64,000 bases of DNA from Escherichia coli (GTDB lineage: Bacteria; Pseudomonadota; Gammaproteobacteria; Enterobacterales; Enterobacteriaceae): assembly GCF_003991155.1 (NCBI RefSeq), contig NZ_CP031293.1. One strand, written 5' to 3'. Below are positions 11,002 to 48,359 of the stretch, piece by piece. The stretch's first letter is position 1. The number at the start of each line of letters is the position of its first letter. The notes under the pieces were generated by a model. That model saw only the letters and a list, made by a program, of their open reading frames with translations. It did not search any database and had not been told where the DNA came from. A program made the translations under genes and the position numbers.

Positions 11002-11613
11002 CTATTTTTGTTTATATAAATCGTAGGAACTTAATTTTTTAGATTTCTCATAGGCATTTTCAATGTATAAAGATACATCTGCTAAAAATCGGTCTTCTTC
11101 TATCAATGAAATATAAGAACCAGTCAATTGATCATATGATTTGCACTCAGGGCAACAATATTTATCTTCTGAAGTTAAATTAAACCTATTATTATTAATA
11201 ATGTCATATAGTTCAGTTGTGTCAATAGTTCTTGATGAACATCCATCAGGCTTGATTGAAGAAGATACTAACCAGTCATAGCTATTATTAACCTTCATTA
11301 TCACACCAACAATGCCATTAGTTCGGGAAGTGGTTCCTCCTCTCTTGTATTCTTTCAATGCATATTCAATTTCCCAGTCAATCCATTTACTTTTAATCAT
11401 ATTCGGGGAAATAATAACGATTAAAACAGATGTCCCGAAAATCATATTTTTAAGATTGTTCTTTATATTATCTACTGTTGTATTACTTATATCAGGAGAC
11501 TCCGATGTTTCCCCTTTATAGTAAACAGCATCATCACCTAATGCCTTGACAATTTTGTCTCTTAAATCCTGTGCTTCACTATATTTATATGATATGAATG
11601 TTTCATGAGCCAT
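11002..11613 (-). CDS. thsB: Thoeris ThsB, TIR-domain protein
   Basis: N-terminal ETFISYKYSEAQ and WIDWEIEYAL are typical TIR-domain signatures; 16 bp downstream of thsA on the same strand. Confidence 0.8.
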   Translation of the reverse strand: MAHETFISYKYSEAQDLRDKIVKALGDDAVYYKGETSESPDISNTTVDNIKNNLKNMIFGTSVLIVIISPNMIKSKWIDWEIEYALKEYKRGGTTSRTNGIVGVIMKVNNSYDWLVSSSIKPDGCSSRTIDTTELYDIINNNRFNLTSEDKYCCPECKSYDQLTGSYISLIEEDRFLADVSLYIENAYEKSKKLSSYDLYKQK

Positions 11614-11629
11614 AACTTCACCTAATATA

Positions 11630-13066
11630 TTATTTATTCAGTTTGTTTATGATTTTTATTACAACTTCTATTGTTTTTTTTACCGAAAAATCTTTTTCAG
11701 TAAGCTCAGACAAATCATTATATATCCATTCATTACTTCCATAATATTTCTTAGGATCTTGTGATATTTGTTCAAATATATATTTAGACATATACCCGGT
11801 ATTGGGTAAAGGAATTGGTACAAGGCCATGTTGAACAGCAATCTCAAACTCTCTAAATACTCCCCTAGCATTTACTATATCATTATTTTCCTCTTGTTTA
11901 TTTCCAAAAATAAACAATGCAATACCACCAAGAGGAATCATTCTCTGTCTATACTCCTCCCAAAGTTCTTGAATATCTTTCCCCTTACTGACAGTTTGTG
12001 GAAATGGTCTAACAATGAGCTGTTCTTCTGATAATTTATCTGGCCTACTATAAATTGCATCCAACGCACCATTTATCACAGAACTTCCGACGCCCCATCC
12101 AAATCCATTCACTATCCTATAATTATTCTTTATAATCTCATATGCTAATGTGTGAATAAAATCTAATGCTTTAGGTCTTTCAAGATCCCCATATTTTTCT
12201 GCACTACCAGAAATAAATATCGTTTTCTTTTTAAATGATTGCTCTATCTTAGCTAGAATTTTAGGGATGTCAGAATATTCATCTATTAATAATACTTGTA
12301 TACCAAATCTCTTGAGATCATCGATTCGCAGTTTTTGTTTTCTGATCTTATAATTTACTGTTTCTTCATCATCTAGGGAATTATTAGCCTCATTCTTCAT
12401 AAAGCAATAGTGTGTCCTCTTGTCCCCAGAATGAGTATACAAACGACTCAAAATGTAATCCAGATTTGGGTCGGTAAAACTAAACCCTATGAATAGAAAG
12501 GTTTTTGATATTAAATCTCCGCTAAGTGCGGTGATAAATGAAGCGTGTGTTCTGTAGTATTTTTCATACTGCTCTTTATATAAAATAGCCTTGGATGGGG
12601 ACGAAATATCACCATGCATTTTATATACTATCGCGTCTCGCTTAGGTCGTGTTGTATTTAAATCATCTATGTTTCTTTTTACATCTGCAATTTTGTAAAC
12701 TTTCCGCAGACTATCTTCAATTAAAGTGTCATAGTTTGTTGTCCAAAATGTCTTAATCGGTAAACGAGCAATTATATTATGAACCTCTGATGGCTCGGCT
12801 TGCTCAGAAAACTCTTCGATTATCTTCCTTGTGAGTTTTGTAGCCCCTTTCTTTTCATTAACATGAAATTGAGCAAGCGATATTAGATCGTCTTCTTTAT
12901 TAATGTCTAAACTAAGCTCTTCTGCTATATCGCTAAGTAATTCTTTCCAATCAACATAACCTTGACTTTTAGACATTCCTGCGCCAGAAAAAATAGCAGC
13001 ACAATCATTTTCAAGATCTTTAACAAAATCTTTTATGAAAACTTCAATTTCATTACTAAACGTCAT
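11630..13066 (-). CDS. thsA: Thoeris ThsA, SIR2 (NAD-binding) plus SLOG domain protein
   Basis: From ATG at 13066 (GGAG RBS 9 nt upstream) the protein MTFSNEIEVFIKDF...AAIFSGAGMS...TTNYD...MHGD (SIR2) then IFISGSA...GFGWGVGSSVINGALD (SLOG) closely parallels Bacillus cereus ThsA as I recall it. Confidence 0.85.
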   Translation of the reverse strand: MTFSNEIEVFIKDFVKDLENDCAAIFSGAGMSKSQGYVDWKELLSDIAEELSLDINKEDDLISLAQFHVNEKKGATKLTRKIIEEFSEQAEPSEVHNIIARLPIKTFWTTNYDTLIEDSLRKVYKIADVKRNIDDLNTTRPKRDAIVYKMHGDISSPSKAILYKEQYEKYYRTHASFITALSGDLISKTFLFIGFSFTDPNLDYILSRLYTHSGDKRTHYCFMKNEANNSLDDEETVNYKIRKQKLRIDDLKRFGIQVLLIDEYSDIPKILAKIEQSFKKKTIFISGSAEKYGDLERPKALDFIHTLAYEIIKNNYRIVNGFGWGVGSSVINGALDAIYSRPDKLSEEQLIVRPFPQTVSKGKDIQELWEEYRQRMIPLGGIALFIFGNKQEENNDIVNARGVFREFEIAVQHGLVPIPLPNTGYMSKYIFEQISQDPKKYYGSNEWIYNDLSELTEKDFSVKKTIEVVIKIINKLNK

Positions 13067-23746: not shown

Positions 23747-25709
<1,963 letters not shown>

Positions 25710-46438: not shown

Positions 46439-46945
46439 TTATTTCCGGCCTGCGAGGCCCAGCTCTGCAATCAGTTGCTCACGGCTCTTTTCGTCATCAA
46501 GCAATGCCTGAAGTTGTGCACGGAACGCAGGGATATTGCCCATTGGCCCCCGAAGCGCCACCAATGCTTCGCGTAGTTCCAGCATTTTGCGCATCTCCGG
46601 CACCTGGGAGGCAATGTTGTCCGGAGAAAGATCGGCCAGCGAGCTGATTTTCAGATTTACGCTCATGCGCGTATCAGGCGTTTCGCTGAGAGCAGACGGA
46701 ACGGTGAAATCACGACCAATCCCTGCCTGATCCAGCACTGCGTTAAAGTTGTTGCGGTTGATGGCAACGGGCTGGCGCTCATCCAGTGGCGTGTTATCTG
46801 CATCACCTGTCAAATTGCCAGTAACCAACAGATTTAGCGGTAATTCCACTTCTGCTGTCTGATTCCCCGTTTTTGGCTTAAATTTAATATTTACTCTTTC
46901 TTTTGGGGCAATACTGCCACCACCGTCATTTCTTCTGCTGCTCAT
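46439..46945 (-). CDS. tssB: T6SS sheath small subunit TssB
   Basis: MSSRRNDGGGSIAPKERVNIKFK... typical TssB; start ATG 46945. Confidence 0.85.
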   Translation of the reverse strand: MSSRRNDGGGSIAPKERVNIKFKPKTGNQTAEVELPLNLLVTGNLTGDADNTPLDERQPVAINRNNFNAVLDQAGIGRDFTVPSALSETPDTRMSVNLKISSLADLSPDNIASQVPEMRKMLELREALVALRGPMGNIPAFRAQLQALLDDEKSREQLIAELGLAGRK

Positions 46946-47230
46946 AAGAATAATCCATAAGGTTATCATCCAGGCCATGAGCGCAGCATGTTCTGCATTT
47001 AAAAAATACAGCAAATACCAGCCCAATGGCAGTAAAAAAATAAAATTCTACACATTCATAGCGTCACATTCTACGCGCAGAAAAGCATTTGAAAAGAAAA
47101 TTTTCAAGGGGTATCCTTCCACGAAACAATAGGAACAACAAAAGACAAAGAAGCCTGAAACCATGCATGCCAAGCACGCAATGCCCAATAGTGAATTATG
47201 TAACTCATTGATTTTAGATCTTTGATCAAG

Positions 47231-47312
47231 AAACATAAGGATTTCTTATGACTTACAGAATATATATAAATTCCGTGATTATAATTTGAAATAAAATAAG
47301 GATATCCTTATT
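47231..47312. promoter_or_regulatory. Two related palindromes in the tssB-hcp divergent promoter region
   Basis: cataaggatttcttatg (about 47234-47250) and perfect 18-bp palindrome aataaggatatccttatt (47295-47312). Confidence 0.35.
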
Positions 47313-47627
47313 TTTATCAAAGTGACAATTAAGAACAACAGAATATAATATATATTCATGATAAAGCCATGCCTTTTATAGATGGTGATTGAAAAACATT
47401 TACCAACCACTAGCGATCATCCACTCGTTGATTAAAGTTTAACTAAACAGAAAGTTTAAAATTTGTAAAAACAATTATTACGACAAGCGTTAATTCGCAT
47501 TGTCTGTAAATCAAGCACAGAGAAATGGTGTGGTTCTAGGCATGGACCGTATCGTTATCTGCCTGCCAGGGATTAATGGCAGGTCATCAGCAAGTTGTTG
47601 TTAAGAACATTCACAAGGAGTTTACAA

Positions 47628-48146
47628 ATGCCAACACCGTGTTATATCTCAATTACTGGTCAGACCCAGGGAAACATCACCGCAGGTGCATTTACTGCTG
47701 ATTCCGTCGGCAATATCTACGTGCAGGGCCATGAAGATGAAATGCTGGTGCAGGAATTCCTGCATAACGTCACCGTCCCGACGGACCCACAATCTGGCCA
47801 GCCAGCCGGACAGCGCGCTCACAAGCCATTTATCTTCACTGTGGCGCTGAACAAAGCAGTCCCCCTGCTGTACAACGCGCTGGCCTCCGGTGAAATGCTG
47901 CCTACCACTGAACTGCACTGGTGGCGTACCTCTGTGGAAGGCAAACAGGAACATTACTTCACTACCCGCCTGACAGACTCGACAATTGTTGATATGAAGT
48001 TGCATATGCCGCACTGCCAGGACCCGGCAAAACGCGAGTTCACCCAGTTACTCGAAGTTTCGCTGGCCTACCGCAAAATCGAGTGGGAACACGTTAAGTC
48101 AGGCACTTCTGGCGCTGACGACTGGCGTGCACCGCTGGAAGCATAA
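47628..48146 (+). CDS. hcp: Hcp T6SS tube protein
   Basis: MPTPCYISITGQTQGNITAGAF... typical Hcp1; AAGGAG RBS 7 nt before ATG. Confidence 0.9.
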   Translation: MPTPCYISITGQTQGNITAGAFTADSVGNIYVQGHEDEMLVQEFLHNVTVPTDPQSGQPAGQRAHKPFIFTVALNKAVPLLYNALASGEMLPTTELHWWRTSVEGKQEHYFTTRLTDSTIVDMKLHMPHCQDPAKREFTQLLEVSLAYRKIEWEHVKSGTSGADDWRAPLEA

Positions 48147-48156
48147 GTTAAGACAA

Positions 48157-48190
48157 CAGCATCCGACCGTCTGGCCGGGTGCTGTTTTTG
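48157..48190 (+). terminator. Intrinsic terminator after hcp
   Basis: 9-bp stem cagcatccg / cgggtgctg (one G-U wobble), 10-nt loop, then ttttt. Confidence 0.5.
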
Positions 48191-48359
48191 TATTACACCG
48201 CAGGAAAAAAGGTTGTCAGTAAGGGGTTACGTTTTTACGGGAGATGGCGGATGCCGGATACTTCGGCGGTAGCGTGCCTGAAATCCAGCGTAACACTGTA
48301 CTGTCACAGCAACTGAACTGTGGAGTGTGTGTTTTCCTGTAAGCATCAGGGAGGTCTAA

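Follow-up and report, generated by a model that had tools for sequence, protein, structure and literature searches.

Whether a dedicated operator coordinates the two divergently transcribed operons of an Escherichia coli type VI secretion system (T6SS) island, and which regulator might read it, is the question raised by a 64,000-nucleotide stretch of contig NZ_CP031293.1 (assembly GCF_003991155.1), referred to here as the window. The structural operon begins with tssB (46439-46945, minus strand, 168 amino acids) and the hcp-vgrG-effector operon with hcp (47628-48146, plus strand, 172 amino acids), and the spacer between them, at 46946-47627, is 682 bp long. A preliminary description of the locus had put the spacer at 560 bp, a value derived from an upstream in-frame TTG at 47026; the annotation and every homologue place the start of tssB at the ATG at 46945. 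The spacer contains a perfect palindrome that, with a probability of roughly one half, may be this lineage's version of a conserved hcp-upstream operator for a NarL/FixJ-type dimer, most likely RcsB, a reading built on sequence comparison.

The 18-bp palindrome singled out in that description (aataaggatatccttatt, 47295-47312) is present and perfect, and it is in fact the core of a 22-bp perfect palindrome, AAAATAAGGATATCCTTATTTT, at 47293-47314 (site 1), which is the longest perfect palindrome of the window. When the spacer was dinucleotide-shuffled 2,000 times, a half-length of 11 never arose; shuffling the whole window produced one in 5 of 200 trials, and ∼1.2 perfect palindromes of 22 bp are expected by chance per 5-Mb genome; the 22-mer is significant locally and is not extraordinary on the scale of a genome. 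Site 1 has two features of a generic dimeric operator, namely a 22-bp dyad above chance level and a position upstream of a promoter, the palindrome centre lying 40.5 nt upstream of the −10 hexamer of a predicted promoter that matches the consensus at 11 of 12 positions. The 22-mer is identical in all 28 island-bearing E. coli genomes, and BLAST found no further copy in 5,426 complete E. coli genomes. Nor did the site recur at other promoters of the system, there being no second match with up to three mismatches to its 14-bp core (TAAGGATATCCTTA, 47297-47310) in the 64-kb window. The shared octamer ATAAGGAT has five occurrences in the window, where 2.0 would be expected, a count that 10 of 100 shuffles equal or exceed.

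Conservation was assessed over 27 homologous tssB-hcp spacers, all of them divergently arranged, of which 6 were obtained from a species-level genome scan and 20 from an exact look-up of TssB relatives, the remaining 1 being the common E. coli T6SS-2 locus. These spacers evolve fast, with identities of 50-61% between genera. The perfect 22-mer was kept at 97% spacer identity (loci L009 and L011) and only the 14-bp core at 91% (L010 and L012), and at 72%, where the site reads TAAGAAATCCCTGA, the dyad was gone, as it was at all lower identities. In an alignment of 15 lineages, the left arm of the palindrome (47293-47305), which has the consensus TTAAGGAAT in the homologues and a conservation of 0.79-0.81 over nine columns, reached 0.81 against a mean column identity of 0.60 for the central spacer, second only to a block at 47342-47365 (0.84). 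An alignment of six distant genera alone apparently showed no conservation, which was misleading; the footprint emerged once more loci, and closer ones, were included. Enrichment of 8-mers, unbiased and with one mismatch allowed, was dominated by AT-rich words and was uninformative. The conservation that had been anticipated for the palindromes in orthologous spacers was therefore not borne out for the perfect 22-mer or for a second palindrome (site 2, discussed below), both of which are recent features confined to near-identical relatives. What footprinting did recover was the underlying element in the left arm, and not the perfect symmetry, the right arm, or site 2.

With the loci anchored on a conserved TATAAT through the alignment, the element was seen to be 14-15 bp in length, with the consensus TTAAGGAATATCT(G/C)A, equivalent to T(C/G)AGATATTCCTTAA on the opposite strand, and to begin 47-50 nt upstream of TATAAT and ∼315-335 nt upstream of the hcp ATG. 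This fixed-offset element is present in Escherichia-like genomes, Citrobacter koseri, C. sedlakii, Enterobacter huaxiensis, Lelliottia, and one further Enterobacteriaceae genome. The offset from TATAAT holds in more than 12 lineages and also in the E. coli T6SS-2 paralogue, whose spacer carries TTTTTAAGGAATATCTCAAAAATTATCAAAATGATAATT at the equivalent position and whose promoter segment was found in 2,229 of the 5,426 complete genomes, O157:H7 among them. Nearer to the promoter, a second half-element reads ATTCCTTAA, TTCTCAA, or TTATCAAAA in other loci; its homologue in the window is TTATCAAAG (47314-47322, plus strand), as aligned with the enterohaemorrhagic E. coli (EHEC)-type locus L024 and the C. 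koseri locus L017. The C. koseri genome (GCA_042805175.1) contains a perfect 31-bp palindrome, TTTAAGGAATATCTG-A-CAGATATTCCTTAAA (L017:2103-2133), which uses the half-site of the window 22-mer with the halves 20 bp apart; in this lineage the same element has become palindromic independently.

In its sequence, pseudo-dyad, and per-position conservation, the element appears to be an RcsB/RcsAB box. The published RcsB box is TN(G/A)GAN4TC(T/C)NA, with TN(G/A)GAN4(A/C)CTNA as the lower-affinity form; substitution of the central G or C abolishes binding, and validated boxes occur as far as 215 nt ahead of start sites (PMC7913699). The RcsAB consensus, as cited in PMC3950696, is TaAGaatatTCctA, of which the capitals T1, A3, G4, T10, C11, and A14 are highly conserved, and DNAs bound by RcsB include TAGGAAAAATCTTA from flhDC and TAAGGTTTATCCGA from rcsA (PMC5758874). 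Scanning of both strands of the 27 spacers with both published RcsB patterns returned 14 matches, where 2.5 would be expected by chance (0.092 per spacer). In 12 of the 27 spacers, a match coincided exactly with the conserved element, at a distance of 315-335 nt upstream of the hcp ATG; the other two lay elsewhere.

The 12 spacers with a perfect RcsB box include that of the common E. coli/EHEC T6SS-2, whose copy, TGAGATATTCCTTA, is of the lower-affinity form and non-symmetric; the copies in C. koseri and C. sedlakii read TCAGATATTCCTTA and TGAGACATTCCTGA, respectively. The C. koseri box TAAGGAATATCTGA shares 11 of its 14 positions with the rcsA box bound by RcsB and differs from it only at two N positions and a Y position, and both the C. 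koseri and the EHEC-type copies carry all six RcsAB capitals. In E. huaxiensis, at the neighbouring position closer to the promoter, TAAGACTTTTCTCA constitutes a perfect RcsB box of high affinity, whichever strand is read. Over the homologues, positions 1-4, 6, 11, 12, and 14 of the element are conserved and positions 7-9 and 13 are variable. This profile fits an RcsB/RcsAB box because it mirrors the specified and the N positions of the high-affinity RcsB pattern and of the RcsAB consensus.

Positions 5 and 10 of the element (47301 and 47306 in the window), compared over loci L003-L006, L013, L016-L019, L022, and L024, switch jointly, being G/T in ∼8 lineages and A/C in 3, and sister Lelliottia species differ in their state. 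Each lineage therefore keeps one strong RGA/TCY half and one weak AGG/CCT half, as a symmetric dimer reads them. The joint switch, seen in a small number of lineages, is suggestive of compensatory change in a dyad operator. The G/C combination is present only in the window clade. Accordingly, the window copy TAAGGATATCCTTA occupies the RcsB-box frame (T1, R3, G4, C11, Y12, A14), with A3 and T12 at the two degenerate positions, and deviates from it symmetrically at G5 and C10. Both G4 and C11, which are invariant in nearly all homologues except L015, are present. Comparison with the RcsAB consensus gave agreement at 11 of 14 positions, the capital T10 being missed and replaced by C. Judged against the published RcsB motifs, the window site would consist of two copies of the half that those motifs treat as weaker, and as an operator it is probably weaker or of altered specificity.

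The best sigma-70 match in the spacer (11 of 12 consensus positions) is a predicted hcp promoter at 47322-47349 on the plus strand, with a −35 hexamer GTGACA at 47322-47327, a 16-nt spacer, and a −10 hexamer TATAAT at 47344-47349. Its −10 is conserved in nearly all loci, and a good −35 is absent from most homologues. On the minus strand, the predicted tssB promoter (47068-47095; 9 of 12 positions) comprises TTTTCA at 47095-47090, a 16-nt spacer, and TAGAAT at 47073-47068, and both hexamers lie within blocks conserved at 0.82-0.84 in all homologues. From the predicted starts of hcp (∼47356-47358, plus strand) and tssB (∼47061, minus strand), the palindrome centre at 47303.5 would lie at approximately −53 and −242, respectively, and the promoter-proximal half-element would cover approximately −46 to −33 of the hcp promoter.

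On the favoured reading, a NarL/FixJ-type response regulator dimer, most probably RcsB alone or with a partner, would bind the element and, from approximately −53 (hcp) and −242 (tssB), would activate transcription and/or counteract H-NS silencing of the spacer. In the window clade, the promoter-proximal half (TCTGA/TCTCA) would have given way to the conserved half, copied in inverted orientation, and later changes in the flanks would have lengthened the dyad from 14 to 22 bp. Starting from the outgroup sequence TAAGGAATATCTSA, approximately three small changes lead to the 14-bp dyad, and deletion of a C together with two T-to-A flank changes then leads to the 22-bp palindrome. The symmetry could result from selection for a symmetric site, with altered affinity or a different family member, or, equally, from template-switch correction of a quasi-palindrome. 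The earlier proposal that a dimeric regulator binds here would thus apply to the conserved left-arm element, given the 12 RcsB-box spacers and the fixed offset from the −10, and would not extend to the perfect symmetry or to site 2.

Several observations weigh against assignment of the site to RcsB. The window copy fails both published RcsB patterns, missing the A of the RGA triplet on either strand; it fits only an ad hoc GG/CC variant pattern, and the G5/C10 combination is not among the published variants. Under the RcsB model, palindrome formation has moved the window site off the consensus. Beyond the closest clade the right arm is different, such that the two half-sites are not both conserved, and retention of the 14-bp core at 91% identity is not significant on its own. 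Site 2 is not conserved across the homologues. The motif was not found at the equivalent position in the Salmonella houtenae, Hafnia, Kluyvera, Phytobacter, Buttiauxella, C. youngae, or C. amalonaticus loci. The promoters and start sites that define the geometry are consensus predictions only, and the match to the RcsB box, which is degenerate, carries a multiple-testing cost, the site having been compared informally with ∼20-30 regulator consensuses. In Klebsiella, with a different T6SS type, the effect of RcsB is negative and is exerted indirectly through PhoPQ (PMC7108748).

A different regulator might recognize the half-site TTAAGGAAT, whether another LuxR/FixJ-type protein, a partner of RcsB, or a factor specific to T6SS-2, in which case the likeness to an RcsB box would be coincidence or family-level similarity only. 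Such a regulator would suit the fact that TTAAGGAAT, the most conserved part of the element, is the weaker half under the RcsB model, as well as the absence, from every lineage among the 27 spacers, of a full high-affinity RcsB box on this element. It would also suit the independent duplication of the TTAAGGAAT half in inverted form by two lineages, with the halves abutting in E. coli and 20 bp apart in C. koseri, and the want of an assigned activator for the EHEC T6SS-2 (PMC13141884). We nevertheless consider this explanation, a serious alternative, to be unlikely, in that 12 spacers carry a perfect match to a published RcsB pattern here, where 0.092 per spacer would arise by chance, the island has no annotated regulator gene and its three orphan proteins are without NCBIfam match, and the 13-bp difference in half-site spacing is hard to square with a single rigid dimer. 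That TTAAGGAAT is the half-site of an undescribed T6SS-2-dedicated regulator, or of RcsB with a partner, tolerating very different spacing, seems improbable; if true, it would represent a new operator architecture or a regulator-specificity switch and not a standard RcsB box.

The symmetry may also be a neutral mutational product of template switching or AT-rich drift, with only the ancestral left half functional, or nothing. Template-switch correction of quasi-palindromes is an established mutational mechanism in E. coli, and restriction of the perfect dyad to the closest relatives, the expectation of approximately one 22-bp perfect palindrome per genome, and the deviation of the right arm from the conserved TCTGA/TCTCA are all in keeping with it, as is the lack of a regulon signature, a second copy being found neither in the window nor in any complete E. 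coli genome. It is a serious alternative but somewhat unlikely given that no spacer shuffle attained the observed length, that the palindrome sits exactly on the conserved element and not at random in the spacer, and that stepwise growth from 14 bp (L010, L012) to 22 bp (window, L009, L011) needs several events in the same direction. Quite improbable is the absence of any specific operator, the spacer being simply an AT-rich region of H-NS nucleation and silencing to which the palindrome contributes base composition only. The spacer does have a G+C content of 34% against 47% for the window, tssB and hcp3 mRNA of the homologous EHEC system, T6SS-2, increases when hns is deleted (PMC13141884), and H-NS represses the Klebsiella T6SS (PMC7108748), but the base-specific conservation of TTAAGGAAT, including two G:C pairs, amid diverging AT-rich flanks would be left unexplained. 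Silencing by H-NS and an operator are compatible because an RcsB-type factor could serve as an anti-silencer. Very improbable indeed is an RNA hairpin with flanking A/U tracts that separates the divergent units as an insulator or as a weak terminator working in both directions. The 9-bp stem, flanked by runs of A and U, folds with −10.2 (plus strand) and −9.5 (minus strand) kcal/mol (z-scores of −3.4 and −3.9), but just 2 of its 9 pairs are G:C, it is not conserved in the homologues, a terminator scan found no terminator-like site in 46800-47800, and no Rfam 15 match was obtained at E ≤ 5 across 46700-47900. The palindrome is, moreover, probably not transcribed because it lies upstream of both predicted promoters.

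Site 2, cataaggatttcttatg (47234-47250), is an imperfect palindrome of the form CATAAG-gattt-CTTATG, with 6-bp arms and a 5-nt spacer. A second palindrome upstream of the first was correctly noted in the preliminary description, and its distance, given there as about 55 bp, is 61 bp from start to start (61.5 bp from centre to centre, with a gap of 44 bp). Inverted repeats with 6-bp arms and spacers of 3-8 nt occur ∼1.8 times per shuffled spacer, and site 2 is therefore at chance level; its left CATAA alone is moderately conserved (∼0.68). The ATAAG arms are separated by 6 nt in site 1 and by 5 nt in site 2, and with spacing that differs by one base, a single rigid dimer would not fit both sites. 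Site 2 is at best an auxiliary half-site. Its interpretation as a −10 hexamer, with the conserved TTGATT at 47208-47213 as the −35, was rejected on account of a 20-nt spacer, which is too long, and TAAGGA as a Shine-Dalgarno sequence preceding a small open reading frame was rejected for want of a conserved start codon. Two GATC (Dam) sites, at 47217-47220 and 47224-47227, lie just upstream of site 2, 7 bp apart from start to start and both within a small palindrome, AGATCTTTGATCAA; they are not conserved, the second being lost in L010 and L012. The half-site recurs in partial form at 47109-47118 (GGGTATCCTT; AAGGATACCC on the minus strand), at approximately −52 from the predicted tssB start, and at 46956-46967 (CATAAGGTTATC), 11 nt upstream of the tssB ATG. 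Around these, the homologues conserve only GGTAT and AGGTTATC, and the likeness of the partial copies to the palindrome arm is probably coincidental.

The consensuses of other regulators were compared with the site. The best match to a Fur box (∼11/19) was near the −10 block, with no convincing Fur box over the palindrome, and the CRP, FNR, ArgR, EvgA, SlyA, HipB, MqsA, IHF, and sigma-E consensuses were likewise rejected on comparison. Half-sites for a NarL/NarP 7-2-7 arrangement are wrongly oriented, the LysR T-N11-A motif suits site 2 and not site 1, and only a single hexamer was present of the YTTAAK repeats of PmrA/QseB. A sigma-54 promoter was also rejected, the GG-N10-GC at 47578-47591 not being conserved and vasH being absent.

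Two further features of the spacer lie downstream of the element. Within the block at 47339-47365, the best conserved of the central spacer (0.84), TATAAT is accompanied by an inverted repeat that is nearly perfect, GAATATA-ata-TATATTC; next comes an invariant TTCATGAT motif, the ATG of which (47358) coincides with the expected transcript start. This block, whose likeness to a Fur box is weak (∼11/19 by eye), may be a repressor operator over the −10 and start site or may provide a leaderless start. In the hcp leader, a stem-loop of the form GCCTGYC-N8/10-GRCAGGY lies at 47561-47584 (stem 47561-47568/47577-47584), ∼45 nt upstream of the hcp ATG. It was present in 12 of 12 loci compared, including Salmonella and Hafnia, with one pair appearing as U-A, U-G, or C-G, and has no Rfam match; possible roles are as a DNA operator or as an RNA element in regulation or stability. 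Approximately 170 nt of the hcp leader are 71% identical to the leader of the common E. coli T6SS-2 hcp.

The window is 100% identical to E. coli chromosomes, and the tssB-hcp spacer was found at ≥99% identity in only 28 of the 5,426 complete E. coli genomes. The island is a rare but complete T6SS island with an integrase, inserted beside tRNA-Asn and mtfA. Its structural genes, tssBCEFG-tagH-tssJK-icmH-tssH-vasI-tssA-tssM-vasL-hcp, are on the minus strand, and hcp-vgrG-DUF2169-PAAR-Rhs are on the plus strand. At the left end of the island, alongside the orphan proteins mentioned above, the N terminus of a 242-amino acid member of that group (24981-25709, minus strand) resembles a helix-turn-helix by eye; this protein has no Pfam or NCBIfam match, and it was considered as an island-encoded regulator without evidence being found for it. 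Between hcp and vgrG, just past the hcp stop, a G+C-rich hairpin, CAGCATCC...GGGTGCTG, followed by TTTTTG (∼48158-48192) is terminator-like and parallels the “h3R” region downstream of hcp3 in EHEC, which contains a terminator (PMC13141884). A lower-affinity RcsB match, TTAGACCTCCCTGA (48346-48359, minus strand), overlaps the vgrG ribosome-binding site; it is at chance level, with 6 such matches in the whole window against 9.8 expected. Elsewhere in the window, adjacent genes for a TIR-domain and a SIR2-family protein (11002-13066) resemble, as read from the annotation, a Thoeris-like anti-phage pair. They belong to a separate integrative element upstream of tRNA-Ser that also carries two H-NS-family genes, MobQ, RepL, and pilV/bfpA.

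Set beside the RcsB/RcsAB boxes, the element is alike in being a 14-bp pseudo-palindrome in the same frame, situated upstream of a promoter without a strong −35 in the majority of lineages. The window copy is unlike them in having G5/C10 on both strands, with both halves of the weak type. A functional parallel is in Serratia marcescens RM66262, in which RcsB directly activates a T6SS promoter via a conserved box in response to attack (PMC5565961). In both cases the site is at the promoter of a T6SS cluster; in Serratia it is conserved among syntenic strains and envelope damage drives expression (PMC5565961). The Serratia cluster is, however, a different one, transcribed as a single unit from vgrG; its site lies 418-438 nt ahead of the ATG of that gene and was shown by DNase I footprinting (PMC5565961), whereas the window site is predicted only.

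The bidirectional promoter of the EHEC EDL933 T6SS-2, “t6sP,” is repressed by H-NS, and deletion of hns is insufficient for expression (PMC13141884). The same 2026 paper calls this promoter unknown and does not mention RcsB, and the sites that it gives for t6sP, those of ArgP, CysB, CytR, Fis, and LeuO as well as NarP/NarL, are in silico only (PMC13141884). The EHEC spacer, 694 bp in L024, is a homologous divergent tssB-hcp spacer and shares with the window the −10 block, the hcp leader stem-loop, and the TTAAGGAATATCTCA element. It differs in that the EHEC-type copy is non-symmetric, whereas the window island is a rarer paralogue at tRNA-Asn with a symmetric copy. A further comparison is offered by the sci1 T6SS promoter of enteroaggregative E. 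coli, reportedly placed under Fur and Dam methylation control by Brunet et al. in 2011. Both are AT-rich T6SS promoters, and the window has its two nearby GATC sites; sci1 is of another T6SS subtype, the window palindrome is without a convincing Fur box, and one GATC is lost in L010 and L012.

The T6SS-2 family is present in ∼40% of complete E. coli genomes, including O157:H7, and is silent in the laboratory. The symmetric variant of the window and the C. koseri 31-mer are natural allelic variants for dissecting the requirements of the site, and if RcsB does not bind, the conserved element would still be the best available bait for the missing activator. If the RcsB reading is true, Rcs envelope-damage signalling would switch T6SS-2-type systems on, as in Serratia. 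The main value of the element is as a testable lead on the activator of a widespread, silent E. coli T6SS-2 family.

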